A stretch of 64,000 nt of DNA. Source: a virus. Positions within the stretch are counted from its first letter, which is position 1. Each line of letters starts with the position of its first letter. The notes under the pieces are model-generated. The model was given only the letters and a program-made list of their open reading frames with translations. It made no database searches and was not told the DNA's origin. Shown piece by piece: positions 2,317-52,261 of this stretch. The translations under genes were made by a program, and so were the position numbers. The stretch lies in the UHGV virus genome UHGV-0299153. One strand, written 5' to 3'.

Positions 2317-2697
2317 ATGAAAAACACTACTAAAGCTATTGACACCGTCATGTTTAACCTGGTTACCTTTCGCGAGGATATGAAAGATCTTCCACGTGAA
2401 ACAGTGTGCGATCACATTGAAAACTATCGCAAACTAATCAAAGAGTTGCCTTTAAAACGTGATCAGTATGCGGCTAACGCCATGCTTAATGCCATGATCA
2501 AAAAGATGATCCAGTGTGATTTAACTCTGGCCTATGACTATGCGGGTGGTCGTTTTGCAGTATACAATCAGCCCGTGCCCGGTATGGGCACCACCGAAGA
2601 ATTGCACGCGTTAAATCTGAAGCAAGATGTATGGGATAACATGCCCCGCGTGGTGGTGTGGGCAGAAAGCGGAAAGATTTACGGCGATAATTTTTAA
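2317..2697 (+). CDS. hypothetical protein (126 aa)
   Basis: Internal ATG of ORF 2284-2697 preceded by hairpin plus CACACAAAACAAAGAGGAAAACATC leader. Confidence 0.55.
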   Translation: MKNTTKAIDTVMFNLVTFREDMKDLPRETVCDHIENYRKLIKELPLKRDQYAANAMLNAMIKKMIQCDLTLAYDYAGGRFAVYNQPVPGMGTTEELHALNLKQDVWDNMPRVVVWAESGKIYGDNF

Positions 2698-2761
2698 TCA
2701 GGTAACAGGCGGCAAATATGCCGCCTTATTGTTAAACAGAGCTGCAAAAGAGGTACATAGA

Positions 2762-3133
2762 ATGGAATTTATTATTTTGGCTGTAGTAGTTGCCTTGTTC
2801 AACGCCTGGATAGCTGGCAAAATAGGTAGATCCGCTTTTCTATGGTTTGTTATATCTATTTTCCTGGGAGTGGTTGCAACCATTGTACTAGTTATCCTTG
2901 CAATTGTTGACAAGGATAATAATAAGAAGGGTAAAGTATTTTCCGACCTGTATGACGCCCAAACTTTTGTTAACGCCTATTATAGTGATCTTCCGGTCTC
3001 CTTGCGCTGCAGCCTGGCGCAACAAGTTTTTGATGAGGCTAAAACCAGAGATCAAGCCCATGAGATATGTTTAACTGAGGCGGATCGCCTATTTGAGAGG
3101 AATAGAAAATATGTGGGCCAGCCGTTTAAATAA
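2762..3133 (+). CDS. hypothetical membrane protein (two predicted TM helices)
   Basis: Internal ATG of ORF 2627-3133 with AAAGAGG SD; hydrophobic N-terminal half. Confidence 0.5.
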   Translation: MEFIILAVVVALFNAWIAGKIGRSAFLWFVISIFLGVVATIVLVILAIVDKDNNKKGKVFSDLYDAQTFVNAYYSDLPVSLRCSLAQQVFDEAKTRDQAHEICLTEADRLFERNRKYVGQPFK

Positions 3134-3243
3134 TACCACGTTAATTAATCCCTTTAATGAAGATTTGAAGCCAGCCGCCTGGCGTGATGGATTCAATAAC
3201 GAACGCTTTATTTTCAGGCCTGATCTTGAGGAATTTTATAACA

Positions 3244-3369
3244 ATGGATCGAACAACAGCGGAGATAATTTTTCTTGTGGTGTGCGTGGTGATAGGACTC
3301 CTGGGGGCCATTGTAAACCACGTCACTACTAACAGGAGGGAAGGGGGAGACGATGACAACCAAGGATAA
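3244..3369 (+). CDS. possible small membrane peptide (41 aa)
   Basis: Internal ATG of ORF 3184-3369 with GAGG SD; hydrophobic core; competes with overlapping ORF 3093-3332. Confidence 0.3.
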   Translation: MDRTTAEIIFLVVCVVIGLLGAIVNHVTTNRREGGDDDNQG

Positions 3370-3476
3370 GCCATGCGCTGATAAGGTGCGCCGTGTTATG
3401 GTATGGCTTGAGATCATCGCCCTTGAAATATTGTTAGGCGTAGGGATGTATTTTATCTCTGTAAGTAACTGATAAC

Positions 3477-3508
3477 GGCCCCCGATCCCTGGGGGCCTAA
3501 CTTTTTTC
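3477..3508 (+). terminator. Rho-independent terminator
   Basis: GGCCCCC/GGGGGCC 7-bp stem, 7-nt loop, followed by TTTTTT. Confidence 0.6.
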
Positions 3509-3617
3509 AAAAAATTTTTCTTCCGGGGTGTTGCAATCCGGTCCTGAATATGGATAATAACAATCAACGGGGAGACACTCCCCACCACACAGACAAAGTT
3601 CCAGAAGGGGAAACAAA

Positions 3618-7669: not shown

Positions 7670-8089
7670 ATGAACATTAAATCTAATAATCCGGCATATA
7701 GCTTTGATAACGCTTTTTGTCACGGTCCGGCGGCGAAAGGATTCGAAATCGATGGTAAACTAATTATTGTCAATGTTGACGGGGAAGAGGTTGCAGTATA
7801 TCCGGTGGCAGACGTAAAAAGCCGTTTACAATGCCGCATGGATGTTACCGCCTATCAGCTTGATCCGGTCCGCATAGTTGCCCTGGTCCTGGAAGAAGAA
7901 ATTAAAGCCATGCACCATAGCAACAGATTTATTGGTGACGCGCAGGATAATATGAAAGTATGCCGCCATAAAGTTAATGAAGTGCTTAAAGAGTACGGCT
8001 ATAAAGATCTTATGATCAAACGTGAGGAAAAATTCCGCTACCGTAACGACCTGGCAAATCGGATTTTTGAAATATACGAATCATTATAA
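7670..8089 (+). CDS. hypothetical protein (139 aa)
   Basis: ORF track; SD AAGAGG; last gene of rightward block. Confidence 0.55.
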   Translation: MNIKSNNPAYSFDNAFCHGPAAKGFEIDGKLIIVNVDGEEVAVYPVADVKSRLQCRMDVTAYQLDPVRIVALVLEEEIKAMHHSNRFIGDAQDNMKVCRHKVNEVLKEYGYKDLMIKREEKFRYRNDLANRIFEIYESL

Positions 8090-8108
8090 TTTTTTAACTG
8101 AATTATCA

Positions 8109-8132
8109 AGGGGCTTAGGCCCCTTTCTTTTT
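8109..8132 (+). terminator. Rho-independent terminator ending the rightward early block
   Basis: AGGGGC/GCCCCT stem, TTAG loop, then TTCTTTTT. Confidence 0.6.
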
Positions 8133-8749
8133 GTCTGCTCTTCTCCTACCATAAACGGCCCTACCTGGCAAGTGGAATAATTGACTAGCCATCAATCCCG
8201 CATACTGTACAAATATACATGGAAAATAACTATTGCATAATTTTTCATTGTGTGGTAGCAAGTCCATTTTTACCCGTTTTCTCTCCCAAAAGTGCACGTA
8301 ATGCCGCTATTGCACAAATTTTAACCTGATGCACATCTCCAATATCTTGTCAACAACTAAAAATCTTTATAAGTCATACACTTACACAGCATCGAAAGCG
8401 TGTTCTACGCGAAAAATCGAGTATAACTATAGCCGCCAGATCTCAGAATTCACGTACGCACGCCATTCTATAGCCTGCAAAGTATTTATTCCAACCACAG
8501 AATAACGGAATAGTCAATACCTGCATAAAATAATTATTCGTGTAAACTGCATAACATAAATCAGCTCAGGTGTCAACATTTTTCGTAAACAGTCCGAAAT
8601 TATCACGATGAGTTATCATAAACAGAGAAATCTTTAGTCGTCTAATGTTTACTGTACATTACTATACTGACTGGAATCATTAGATGACTAAGAGAAAGAT
8701 AAGAAATAATTAATAATGTAATTATTTTACCTGTAACAATAAGGCAACT

Positions 8750-9030
8750 ATGCAAACGAATGGCATGGCGCGACGGAGTCGCGACATAATATAAAAGCAG
8801 TAACCATCACCCCCGTGATAGTTTGTCTGCAAACTATTAATCAGATCATAGTTGCCTTGTATTTAGTTAATCGTGACATAACAAGCAAGGCAACTATAGA
8901 TCTTCTAATAGTTGCCCTGCTTTTATATTATGTCATAGAAACACCCGAAGGGGTGACCAAAGGTCACCTGGCATAGCCAGTGAAAGATTGTAAACAAGTT
9001 AATTATTATCATGCAAACGAATGGCATGGC
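8750..9030. repeat. 20-bp direct repeat ATGCAAACGAATGGCATGGC (8750-8769 and 9011-9030)
   Basis: Exact match read from sequence. Confidence 0.7.
8783..8934. repeat. 18-bp perfect inverted repeat GACATAATATAAAAGCAG / CTGCTTTTATATTATGTC enclosing GGCAACTAT/ATAGTTGCC sub-repeats
   Basis: Arms at 8783-8800 and 8917-8934; GGCAACTAT at 8743 and 8889, ATAGTTGCC at 8848 and 8908. Confidence 0.7.
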
Positions 9031-9042
9031 TTATCATCTCTG

Positions 9043-9097
9043 TGTAAATAGTTTGTTTGTAAACAGTTTATACGTGAACAGTTAGCTGTGTAAACTA
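9043..9097. repeat. Cluster of TGTAAA(C/T)AGTT-like iterons
   Basis: TGTAAATAGTT, TGTAAACAGTT, GTGAACAGTT, TGTAAACTAT within 55 bp; related copies near 8540, 8825 and 9359. Confidence 0.55.
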
Positions 9098-10585
9098 TCA
9101 GGCATGTCAATTATGCCCGGTGTGTTTAAGGTGCCCAGTATGTCAGACAAGTTTTTCTCCTCTTTGTCAAGTGCTGCATGAAAAATTTACAAACTGGTAT
9201 GGTAGCATTTTTGCGGCCCTGTTTACATTCAGTAATGTATGTATAATCCTTGTTGTGTGGGCGTTTAGACGTCTAGACGGTTGGAAGTCCACAGGTCAAT
9301 ATCTAATCTATCGGCTGCTAACTATATCCCACACAAATAGTAAGAAATATAATTGTTATGTGTGTAAACAGTAACTCATGTTATCAATCCCTGTATGGAT
9401 CGCCAGTGGTGCGCATAATGGGTATTATGTTAAATTGCCCGTAATGATAACTATTCTCACAATGATAGGTATTCTCATTCCCCCACACAAAATAGATTGC
9501 AAATGTTGTGCCACTATGTGAACGGCCTCACCTATTAATTTGCCTCACTGCCTCGATATTTGAGAATTATTATAAGAATGAGAAGTATTCCCATTCCGTC
9601 CGCCTGGCAGCACTCCAGTCGCTACCGCTCATGACAGGGCAGAACTGGGTCCATTCAGATATTTCTGGCTGACTCTTCAGGCCTGTGTGGGAAAAGCCAA
9701 CCTCTCCGGCGGCGGCGGGGAGGGGTTTGTCAGGAAAATTGCAGGTCAATTAAAAAATTTACGGGGTATATGAAGCGCTCTTCAGATAAGGCATGTATTA
9801 TGGGATGAAACCCTCTTCAGGCAATGATATTTGTGGGTGTGATATTTGCTGGAAAGCCAGATATGACGGGACTCCCGGCGGGGCAGGGGTAGTACAGACA
9901 GGGAAAATATGGAGGATGTGGTTGGGTAAATTGATCAGGCAGGTAGAGTATGGAATATGTTACAGGTATGTTAAATAGGGAGGCTGAATATCTGTAGGAT
10001 TTGTGTGTAAAATCAAAGACTTAAGGGGTGTTGTGGTATTTTCTATAAATAATTCAAGTTTAATAGGCAATATTTGTCTCTATCCGCTTTGTGTGGTAAA
10101 CAGATTCAGATTAGATTGGTTTACAAGTGTATACATAATATACAAATTAAAGATACAAGAAACCCCCCTCCCCCTTCGGCTACCATTCACCTTTTCCTCT
10201 GACTGGTACTTAAACACTTATTCAGACTTTTCAGGTTATCACCCATATACCATATGGCAGTGACTGGTGTCCTCCGGCCCCTCTTTCGTCACCCGTCCGC
10301 TTCGCCATGCTAATGCCATAGCCAATGGTTCGGTTGTTCACCCTGTTCACTCAGGTGTATCTCCATACCCCTTCAAACCGAAGAGAACAGAAAACCCGAA
10401 TTACTCGGTAAAAGAAAAGAGAAGAACTTAATTTTATCAGGATAGGCAAGAATGTCAAGGCATGACTGCTCACTAAACAAGCAAACAGTCATGTGTGGGA
10501 GGTAAGTGATTGTGGTGGTAGGAAATTTAGTTGAAAGATGTGTTATAGGTGCTCCCAGCACTTTAGCCGGGTAGCTAATTGTGTG

Positions 10586-10801
10586 TCAGTCCAGTGGTTC
10601 ATCACCTACTTCACTGAAATCAATGTTCATGGTCTCCTCCCAACCATCAATCTCAGCACCAGAGTAGAGATCTTTAGGACTTACTCCCAAAGCCTCAGCA
10701 ACAGAGTCTATATTTAACACCTCTGGCAGGTATGATTCATCGAGTTCAAGGTAAATCAGGCCACGAGTGTTGTCAGCTCCACCAAATATTTCTATCTTCA
10801 T
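10586..10801 (-). CDS. hypothetical small acidic protein (72 aa)
   Basis: Internal ATG of ORF 10586-10867 with GAGGAG SD; last gene of leftward block. Confidence 0.5.
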   Translation of the reverse strand: MKIEIFGGADNTRGLIYLELDESYLPEVLNIDSVAEALGVSPKDLYSGAEIDGWEETMNIDFSEVGDEPLD

Positions 10802-10921
10802 GAAATCTCCTCTGGAAATGAGAATGTGAACAGGGTTTATATGTTCCAATGCACTGGAATTATGCACGTTTGCCTCTTCAGGCCATGCTTTAGCATGAGG
10901 AACCTGTGTGGGCTCGGTGCT

Positions 10922-51447: not shown

Positions 51448-51522
51448 GCCCTGTTAGCTTAGTGGATAAAGCAGCGGCCTTCTAAGCCGTTGACACTGGT
51501 TCGAGTCCAGTACGGGGTGCCA
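51448..51522 (+). tRNA. tRNA-Arg (anticodon TCT)
   Basis: Cloverleaf folded by hand: acceptor GCCCTGT/ACGGGGT, anticodon loop CTTCTAA, T-arm ACTGG-TTCGAGT-CCAGT, encoded CCA. Confidence 0.75.
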
Positions 51523-51526
51523 AATT

Positions 51527-51613
51527 GGGGAGTTATCCCGTAGAGGTAGCGGTGTAGACTGTAAATCTATTGTCATTGCGACTCGGGTGGTTCGACTCCA
51601 CCACTCCCCACCA
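51527..51613 (+). tRNA. tRNA-Tyr (anticodon GTA), type II
   Basis: Acceptor GGGGAGT/ACTCCCC, anticodon loop CTGTAAA, long variable arm, T-arm GGTGG-TTCGACT-CCACC, encoded CCA. Confidence 0.8.
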
Positions 51614-51728
51614 AATTTATATTTTTTAGATGCATAAATAATACAGATAATGGCATTGATATTTATCGTCGTTTATACTAGTCACTAACTGCTCGAAAAT
51701 CAGTGTCATTATCAGTATAATTTATAAA

Positions 51729-51819
51729 GGAGGGTAGGGAGCAATGGTGCTCAAGCGGTCTTGAAAACCGTCCCGTTGAGGATGACTCGATGATGGTTCG
51801 ATTCCATTACTCTCCGCCA
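51729..51819 (+). tRNA. tRNA-Ser (anticodon TGA), type II
   Basis: Acceptor GGAGGGT/ACTCTCC, anticodon loop CTTGAAA, long variable arm, encoded CCA. Confidence 0.75.
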
Positions 51820-51917
51820 CATTGTTGACCTTGTAATTAAGCGAAAGCCGGAAGCAGAACCGGATTATCAAATGTTACAGTCGTCATCGCCGACTAGCAA
51901 CATGGTCAACATATTGA

Positions 51918-52014
51918 GCTAGGTAAGCCCTTTGGCAAGGGCGAGGATTTTTAATCCTGAAAATAGACGAGGTAGTCGTTGAATACATAGGTGGTTCGAT
52001 TCCACCGCCTAGCA
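51918..52014 (+). tRNA. atypical tRNA-like gene (anticodon loop TTTTTAA, apparent UUU; about 30-nt variable region)
   Basis: Acceptor GCTAGGT/GCCTAGC, D-arm GCCC-TTTGGCAA-GGGC, T-arm GGTGG-TTCGATT-CCACC; only a 4-bp anticodon stem; no encoded CCA. Confidence 0.45.
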
Positions 52015-52021
52015 CCTTTTT

Positions 52022-52097
52022 GCTGATGTAGCACAATTGGTAGTGCAATTGATTTGTAATCAATAGGTTGCGGGTTCAAGTCCTGCCATCAGCACCA
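52022..52097 (+). tRNA. tRNA-Thr (anticodon TGT)
   Basis: Acceptor GCTGATG/CATCAGC, anticodon arm ATTGA-TTTGTAA-TCAAT, encoded CCA. Confidence 0.75.
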
Positions 52098-52098
52098 T

Positions 52099-52173
52099 GG
52101 CCCTGTAGCTGGAAGGTTCAAGCAAGCGACTCATAATCGCCAGACGGTGGTTCAATTCCACCCAGGGCCACCA
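52099..52173 (+). tRNA. tRNA-Met (anticodon CAT; could be an Ile-lysidine type)
   Basis: Acceptor GGCCCTG/CAGGGCC, anticodon loop CTCATAA, T-arm GGTGG-TTCAATT-CCACC, encoded CCA. Confidence 0.75.
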
Positions 52174-52184
52174 AATAGTAGATA

Positions 52185-52261
52185 CTCCGCGTAGCTCAGC
52201 TTGGTAGAGCGCCTGATTTGGGATCAGGAGGTCGAGTGTTCGAATCACTCCGTGGAGACCA
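52185..52261 (+). tRNA. tRNA-Pro (anticodon TGG)
   Basis: Acceptor CTCCGCG/CGTGGAG (one GU), anticodon arm CCTGA-TTTGGGA-TCAGG, T-arm GAGTG-TTCGAAT-CACTC, encoded CCA. Confidence 0.75.

Follow-up and report, generated by a model that had tools for sequence, protein, structure and literature searches.

In two studies, rV5-like phages end in a short repeat of defined length (458–459 bp) with a single packaging start: Korf et al. reported "short terminal redundancies of 458 bp" for EdH4 and HdK5 (PMC6563267), and Gotham was described as having a fixed terminus with the 'same specific start sequence' (PMC7471380). Genomes of Stephanstirmvirinae were likewise reported to end in direct terminal repeats (DTRs) in a 2025 paper (PMC12695924). 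The 2013 paper on rV5 drew the same locus as a grey 'non-coding' box with no open reading frames (ORFs) at 104013–106618, but the terminal repeat went unrecognized there (PMC3606486). Here we analyse its counterpart in the virus genome UHGV-0299153, a stretch of 64,000 nucleotides that we call the window. The counterpart is a gap of 2,445 bp (8141–10585) between a rightward and a leftward gene block, which a sequence-only reading had singled out as a repeat-dense junction. What this locus is was already known from close relatives and from database annotation. We conclude that the gap is, very probably, the end region of a phage chromosome that is linear and not permuted, here in its joined form, as in an assembly or a concatemer.

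The terminal repeat and its boundaries

A sequence search with the gap matched 122 phage records at 87–96% identity, almost all of them Escherichia phages of the genus Vequintavirus. On sequence similarity, the window phage is a Vequintavirus, that is, an rV5-like coliphage and myovirus. In rV5 itself, the counterpart (93% identity) lies at 104014–106564, between genes 163 and 164, and has no annotated feature. We thus equate the gap with the rV5 'non-coding' box, a conserved feature noticed long ago in this phage group. Within it, one segment carries our reading:

9146–9604, no strand: DTR of 459 bp, read as a single collapsed copy; it starts with GACAAGTTTTTCTCC and ends with CCCATTCCGTCCGCC.

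The record of Gotham annotates a 459-bp repeat at 1–459 and 136567–137025, and both copies align to 9146–9604 with no overhang. In HdK5, an exact repeat of 459 bp stands at each end of the record and begins and ends on the same bases (GACAAGTTTTT... to ...TTTCGTCCGCC in the window orientation). Record ends fall on the same two points: five records (HdK5, YN3, ECP2309, Gotham and EcoIv14a_Aya) end at window position 9146, two (bov10K2 and bov22_2) start at 9604, and the re-issued bov10K2 (version 2), a single-copy record, has been opened exactly at 9604|9605. The segment therefore agrees with the repeat of Gotham, HdK5 and EdH4 over its full length, in its end bases, in its length and in its place between a gp159-type gene and the leftward block. 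Nothing material sets it apart; the window record would be a collapsed or circularized assembly, in which the segment occurs once because two copies collapse on assembly.

Segment length and edges hold across the genus. In about 20 related sequences, the segment measures 458–460 bp in every case in which the two boundary words could be found. Its edges read (T/A)(A/G)TGTCA|GACAAGTTTT(T/C)C and ATT(C/T)CGTCCGCC|(T/A)G(G/A)CAGC, with only 1–2 substitutions among relatives. On the left, a hypervariable mosaic of short repeats adjoins the edge directly; on the right, such a mosaic starts about 14 nt further out. So abrupt a change at or near two fixed points 459 bp apart would be difficult to account for if the points had no function. 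The record of phage CM1 (MK962749) contains the segment twice in 2510–3510 of the extracted locus, with 64 nt of pre-repeat sequence between the copies, the first of which stops exactly at ...CCGTCCGCC; this looks like an assembly or re-orientation artefact joined at the physical end. Phage I29 (ON286975) gave a similarly long match, of about 3.06 kb.

Given that 9146–9604 is the DTR, 8133–9145 (about 1 kb) becomes the non-coding right end of the chromosome and 9605–10585 (about 1 kb) its left end. A terminal-repeat boundary was among the alternatives that the sequence-only reading had offered, and this one proved correct. Its picture of two gene blocks converging on a junction is true of the assembled DNA, but missed that the blocks lead to the two ends of the linear virion molecule.

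The whole gap is as free of genes as that reading had proposed. The longest ORFs reach at most 86 amino acids, and stops or frameshifts interrupt nearly all of them in most of eleven relatives. One ORF (10267–10431) survives only since its stretch is near-invariant, and its few substitutions all change the amino acid. We counted variable columns per codon position in alignments of 18–20 sequences and found no 3-nt periodicity in the gap (left 62/54/63, repeat 30/38/41, right 40/50/35; p = 0.25–0.67), whereas six flanking control genes were all periodic (p = 1e-5 to 1e-15; gp159, 7/6/55). Independent gene callers called no gene in the gap on 10 further contigs, which show the same 2.5-kb hole. 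A coding role was therefore rejected, because the ORFs are not conserved and codon periodicity is absent. The sequence-only reading had named intact genes in related phages, or repeats that are not conserved, as findings that would speak against it. Relatives have no intact genes in the gap, and their repeats are conserved in kind.

Elements flanking the repeat

The published descriptions of vequintavirus ends (PMC7471380, PMC6563267) give the length of the repeat only, and mention no flanking arrays, terminators, promoter or Fur-like sites. The window contains the following elements on the left of the repeat:

8108–8132, plus strand: intrinsic terminator ending the rightward gene block (hairpin and T-run, −12.9 kcal/mol).
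8133–8740, no strand: left non-coding block, 607–609 nt in 20 sequences, with 29% of columns variable, 3 gap columns and C>G skew.
8741–8935, no strand: conserved inverted-repeat module, 8.7% of columns variable, near-invariant in 11 phages.
8743 (plus), 8848 (minus), 8889 (plus) and 8908 (minus): copies of GGCAACTAT.
8788–8830, minus strand: terminator-like hairpin (8797–8830) with U-tract (8788–8796), −16.6 kcal/mol, z = −2.7.
8883–8929, plus strand: terminator-like hairpin (8883–8922) followed by UUUUAUAUU, −20.4 kcal/mol, z = −5.8, no shuffle as stable.
8936–8970, no strand: hairpin/palindrome cassette made up of CACCCGAAGGGGTG and GGTGACC-AAA-GGTCACC; it is optional, as 7 of 11 relatives have it and 4 lack it cleanly.
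9011–9030, plus strand: second 20-bp copy, ATGCAAACGAATGGCATGGC, a conserved anchor directly before the variable iteron array.
9041–9099, plus strand: four tandem GTAAAYAGT-type iterons with a period of 13–16 bp, which the sequence-only reading gave as TGTAAACAGT.
9103–9145, plus strand: TGTCA short repeats, the last ending exactly at the left cut; 2–8 copies in relatives.

And on the right:

9605–9650, plus strand: short-repeat zone of GGCAGCRCTCC(A/T)GT units, hypervariable in relatives, with 20–70-nt inserts.
9700–9727, no strand: GC-rich hairpin formed locally by CCTCTCC ... GGGGAGG; its G tract is variable in length.
9740–10585, no strand: right non-coding block, 845–848 nt in 20 sequences.
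10458–10431, minus strand: predicted sigma-70 promoter with extended −10 (TTGACA, 16 nt, TGaTAAAAT), 11/12 consensus matches plus TG.

The density of repeats reported earlier is real, and every element listed then was recovered to within 1 nt. The exact 20-bp direct repeat (8750–8769 and 9011–9030) has no further copy at up to 3 mismatches in the 64 kb; the exact 18-bp inverted repeat lies at 8783–8800 and 8917–8934, and the palindrome GGTGACC-AAA-GGTCACC at 8952–8968. The iterons stand well above chance: GTAAACAGT at up to 1 mismatch gives 9 matches over 8585–10489, against about 0.7 expected per 2.4 kb (32 in the whole window against 17 expected), and GGCAACTAT has 6 copies in the window, where 0.47 are expected, four of them within 174 bp. 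Two further words are concentrated here, GTAAACAG with 5 copies in the gap against 1 in the remaining 61.5 kb, and TGTGTAAA with 4 against 0.

In the virion, the left block would form the right chromosome end just inside the repeat. Like the right block, it appears to be constrained in length and not in sequence. The module that follows (8741–8935) holds the first 20-bp copy, conserved in 11 of 11 aligned relatives, together with the four GGCAACTAT sites and the two terminator-like hairpins; a 33-nt insert near 8880 in this otherwise invariant sequence is found only in rV5 and phita32. Both hairpins carry the same tail, CUGCUUUUAUAUUAUGUC, one per strand, and these two tails are the 18-bp inverted repeat. 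The minus-strand stem is perfect only in minus-strand RNA, through a G-U pair, and the plus-strand hairpin is annotated as a terminator in the records of Murica and Alma. We take the two as intrinsic terminators placed back to back. Bidirectional terminators between genes 163 and 164 had been expected by the authors of the rV5 paper, who found none (PMC3606486), whereas terminator-like hairpins are present in the window. The palindrome cassette next to them occurs in only 7 of 11 relatives and is therefore dispensable.

Closer to the repeat, conservation gives way to turnover. The second 20-bp copy is still visible in the pre-repeat segment of related sequences (EPFV3 has a 1-nt change), and beyond it the GTAAACAGT-like units upstream of the left cut number from 2 to 9 between phages. 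TGTCA units in relatives are most often 10–11 bp apart, one helical turn. Both cuts fall within short palindromes, TGTC-A-GACA (9141–9149) on the left and GCC-T-GGC (9602–9608) on the right, which may matter for cutting. The iterons and TGTCA repeats outside the left cut are candidate recognition sites for the small terminase subunit or another end-binding protein. The earlier idea of a protein landing pad is compatible with a terminal repeat, as these two arrays abut the cut site.

On the right, the most conserved stretch lies farthest from the repeat. In the distal 420 bp (10164–10585), about 8% of columns vary among 19–20 phages. This is roughly one fifth of the figure for third codon positions in gp159 (about 39%) and points to strong constraint. 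This stretch includes the best promoter match in the region, which would fire leftward toward the repeat. Its −10 hexamer is kept in 18 of 18 sequences and its −35 TTGACA in 17 of 18 (TTAACA in CM1); in one relative (locus L007) the spacer is rewritten and 2 nt longer. The literature we searched yielded no transcriptome study of these phages. Within the repeat, a perfect TATAAT (9242–9247) was considered as a second sigma-70 promoter and rejected, as it has no acceptable −35 or TG at the right spacing and is absent from the promoter scan.

The sequence-only reading had also pointed to complementary G-rich (about 9711–9734) and C-rich (about 10160–10180) tracts. Both exist, but their complementarity is imperfect (10/12) and they do not co-vary. 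Long-range pairing between them was rejected on that imperfection and because the length of the G tract differs from phage to phage and that of the C tract does not; in folding, the G tract pairs locally with CCTCTCC.

Comparison with other phage ends and the Fur-box-like sites

Beyond Vequintavirus, Phapecoctavirus phages also have a gene of the gp159 type, which often lies no more than about 1.2 kb from the end of the record, and many Phapecoctavirus records end in this region; an IMG/VR scan with the gp159 protein returned only 3 loci, one of them alignable in the gap. Mt1B1_P17 (Phapecoctavirus) has a 328-bp repeat at both ends, 916 bp beyond its gp159 homologue, and the record of phi92 is annotated with a left and a right terminal repeat of 343 bp, lying in a gene-free stretch of about 1.8 kb. 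As in the window, the repeat of both phages sits in gene-free DNA (1.5–1.8 kb), about 0.9–1.1 kb downstream of the last rightward gene (the gp159 homologue in Mt1B1_P17), and has Fur-box-like motifs and GATATTTGRG inside it. They differ in that the DNA cannot otherwise be aligned, their repeats are shorter, the right non-coding flank is only 285–355 bp long, and the genes to the right of the repeat are co-directional and do not converge. Thus, as judged by sequence comparison, one layout is conserved in three genera: non-coding DNA of about 1 kb, then a short repeat, then further non-coding DNA. Phapecoctavirus (1–1244 of the Mt1B1_P17 locus) and phi92-like Justusliebigvirus are about 72% identical over some 650 nt of non-coding DNA to the left of the repeat; this C- and A-rich stretch is conserved unusually deeply for non-coding phage DNA.

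Two well-studied phages offer more distant parallels. The cos region of phage lambda combines a cut site with terminase-binding repeats and a host IHF site, and produces 12-nt cohesive ends with no terminal repeat. The window resembles it in outline, with a roughly symmetric cut site beside repeated candidate protein-binding elements and possibly a host-factor site, but has no sequence similarity to it. In T7, short repeat arrays adjoin the terminal repeat. The window likewise has gene-free flanks with a promoter and terminators, and short arrays beside its repeat. The T7/T3 junction shares with it a short defined repeat common to adjacent genomes, gene-free flanks with promoters and transcription directed at the junction (PMC3276506). 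In T3 and T7, the terminal repeat and several promoters lie in a left arm that has no genes, packaging recognizes DNA within 5% of the termini, and a polymerase pause at the concatemer junction starts maturation (PMC3276506). T7 differs in its 160-bp repeat, its own RNA polymerase promoters and its lysozyme-dependent pause, whereas no phage RNA polymerase is known for rV5-like phages and none has been reported for rV5. Moreover, the end genes of T7 are not transcribed toward the ends, and those of the window are.

Inside the repeat and to its left, the window contains palindromes that resemble operators of the iron regulator Fur:

9445–9459, 9463–9477, 9561–9575 and 9579–9593, no strand: Fur-box-like 7-1-7 palindromes in the repeat.
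8997–9011, no strand: a fifth such palindrome, left of the repeat.

A Fur box was defined by the 19-bp consensus GATAATGATAATCATTATC or the 7-1-7 form TGATAATnATTATCA. The 7-1-7 form at up to 2 mismatches occurs only 3 times in the 64 kb, always between 8997 and 9575 (8997–9011, 9445–9459 and 9561–9575), against 0.54 expected; 9463–9477 and 9579–9593, read from the sequence, have more than 2 mismatches. The window sites match the consensus in this 7-1-7 form, but by a plain 19-mer count they score 13–14/19 and are not the best in the window. Similar sites lie at 79–93 and 274–288 in the phi92 locus and at 59–73 and 238–252 in that of Mt1B1_P17. The phi92 repeat has GTAAATGATAATCATTATC, which matches the E. 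coli Fur operator at 17/19 and contains a perfect 7-1-7, TGATAATCATTATCA; the arrays in rV5-like and phAPEC8-like repeats have 1–2 mismatches. Indeed, the sole similarity that survives among the repeats of the three genera is AATGATAAnnATTCTCA(TT), with GATATTTGRG further on, and the core AATGATAAnnATTCTCA is common to the repeats of the window, phi92 and Mt1B1_P17. In the phi92, Mt1B1_P17 and HdK5 loci, 7-1-7 sites occur only in the repeat or its non-coding flank. An IMG/VR scan for AATGATAANNATTCTCATT hit at least 120 unrelated viral contigs, so that the motif alone is not specific to the phages considered here and the scan is uninformative.

The literature gave no link between a Fur box and a phage terminal repeat, and the confinement of such sites to the terminal region in three genera may be new. 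A more far-reaching proposal, which we regard as speculative and rather improbable, is that conserved operators of the Fur type lie at the ends of rV5-, phAPEC8- and phi92-like genomes. The repeat would then be bound by host Fur, or by a phage protein of the same specificity, acting as an IHF-like accessory of end recognition or coupling packaging, replication or early events to iron.

Alternative readings and a packaging model

Several points weigh against placing fixed ends at 9146–9604. The termini of this phage are located through relatives that are 91–96% identical in the region, and some of the identical record ends may reflect authors re-orienting to earlier records instead of independent measurement. 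The DTR accounts for only 459 of the 2,445 bp, leaving two fixed-length blocks of 0.6–0.85 kb unexplained, and we infer the roles given to the iterons, TGTCA repeats, promoter and Fur-like sites. In addition, the rV5 paper calls the genome 'circularly permuted' (PMC3606486), and PhageTerm reported 'circular permutated' in one study (PMC8407724) and 'headful (PAC)' in another (PMC13211470). These three statements would fit headful (pac-type) packaging, in which the genome is terminally redundant and circularly permuted, the gap holds a pac site from which packaging series start and there are no fixed ends. However, the rV5 statement predates end analysis and comes from 3.6-fold Sanger coverage, one PhageTerm study used transposase-based Nextera XT libraries (PMC8407724) and the other analysed a mixed phage cocktail (PMC13211470). 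Headful packaging would not give a fixed length of 458–460 bp with sharp homology breaks at or next to its edges, nor does it agree with the single packaging start and defined repeat of two studies or with the records of HdK5, Gotham and phi92, each of which has an exact repeat at its two ends. Transposase-based libraries are poorly suited to detecting termini, and the re-issued records of the Nextera study themselves open exactly at the repeat boundary. We therefore consider headful packaging very unlikely. That the gap is a decayed gene remnant or neutral junk DNA is less credible still. Short hypothetical proteins are annotated in some records (13 in PMBT16, as well as Murica_150 and Gotham F10B_0172) and the left block varies near the synonymous rate, but the annotated ORFs disagree between records, are broken in relatives and show no codon periodicity. 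Because indels are almost absent over 608 and 846 nt and two sub-blocks are far more conserved than synonymous sites, gene decay is effectively excluded; the gap and its repeat architecture also persist in three genera.

The other two alternatives concern what else the gap might do. An iteron-type replication origin, in which GTAAACAGT and GGCAACTAT bind an initiator and AT-rich DNA near 8684 melts, could coexist with a DTR. It would account for direct and inverted iterons clustered far above chance, an 80% A+T 60-mer at 8684, a local minimum of cumulative GC skew at about 8750–9000 (inside the global maximum) and the skew change at 104425–105475 noted in the rV5 paper (PMC3606486). But the skew change coincides with the switch in transcription direction, there is no DnaA box at up to 1 mismatch (0 against 1.5 expected), and no initiator family appears among the eight flanking proteins. 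An iteron number of 2–9 and wholesale replacement of the array between close relatives would be unusual for origin iterons, and packaging directly explains why the arrays lie exactly at the cut site; an origin is thus possible but unlikely. A cluster of non-coding RNA genes, with small or structured RNAs encoded by the conserved blocks (for example a minus-strand RNA from about 10424), had likewise been raised by the sequence-only reading. The conserved strong promoter at 10458–10431, which has a CU-rich leader and a small U-run hairpin downstream, points this way, as do the two good terminator hairpins, the roughly five-fold lower variability of 10164–10585 relative to synonymous sites and the near absence of indels from both flanking blocks. 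By contrast, Rfam 15 at gathering score over the whole window gave no match in the gap, and a permissive E-value search of 7900–10900 gave only RAGATH-13 at chance level (18.7 bits against a gathering score of 80, E = 3.6). On both strands, 10140–10424 folds no more stably than shuffled sequence (z = −0.8 and −0.4), and its alignment, at 97% identity, is too invariant for covariation. A small-RNA cluster is thus little supported and seems to us distinctly improbable, although the promoter and two terminators suggest some transcription.

For a terminal region with fixed ends, we envisage the following sequence of events. By analogy with T7 and T3, replication or recombination would join genomes head to tail through one shared copy of the repeat. 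Terminase would recognize the junction and cut at ...TGTCA|GACAAG... (9145|9146) and ...CCGCC|TGGCAG... (9604|9605), and the repeat would be duplicated so that each packaged genome has a copy at both ends. The arrays abutting the cuts (GTAAACAGT iterons, TGTCA and GGCAGCRCTCC units) would be the most likely sites of protein recognition or assembly, and the Fur-box-like palindromes in the repeat may bind a host or phage accessory factor. The two facing terminators (8788–8929) would limit read-through from the left gene block, while the promoter would send transcription toward the junction and, on joined DNA, across it. End-directed promoter and facing terminators may together delimit a unit of transcription that is whole only when the DNA is joined. 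As a further idea, speculative and rather improbable, the promoter could give a junction-crossing transcript solely from circular or concatemeric DNA and so serve as a sensor of the replicative form or as a trigger of junction processing.

For annotation and comparison, this locus is the place at which to open rV5-like genomes. Many records start elsewhere and a few carry the repeat twice; circular permutation is still ascribed to these genomes in the rV5 type paper and in some later reports. True ends and the cis elements near them matter when these phages, widely used in therapy and biocontrol, are engineered or rebooted, and when packaging and transduction risk is judged. In a tightly packed genome, the two fixed-length blocks, the 420-bp block with its end-directed promoter and the Fur-box-like sites are cheap experimental targets.

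The neighbourhood of the gap adds some smaller observations. The terminator at 8108–8132 comes after a 139-amino-acid gene (7670–8089), the homologue of rV5 gp159. In VB-EcoM-WM and Alma, no such gene is annotated and the gap directly follows an 87-amino-acid gene, so that the left neighbour of the gap is not fixed. On the other side, the last leftward gene (10586–10867, minus strand) is listed as a GTG-started ORF of 93 amino acids. It probably encodes 71, starting at the ATG that opens MKIEIF; its PHROG family and most relatives match residues 23–93 only. Searches of the eight flanking proteins against Pfam and PHROG returned no initiator, small terminase subunit or DNA-binding family, except one distant regulator 1.6 kb away. 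GATC sites are sparse in the gap (5 against about 14 expected at the window-wide density), whereas the 64 kb as a whole has 373 against about 240 expected from base composition. In the tRNA cluster at 51448–52261, ARAGORN calls Arg, Tyr, Ser, Thr, Met and Pro and one odd tRNA with a 4-base anticodon; Rfam confirms five. Finally, 19 records (MG0656xx) named 'Campylobacter phage', with C. jejuni as host, are about 88–96% identical to E. coli vequintaviruses at this locus and are probably mislabelled or contaminant genomes.

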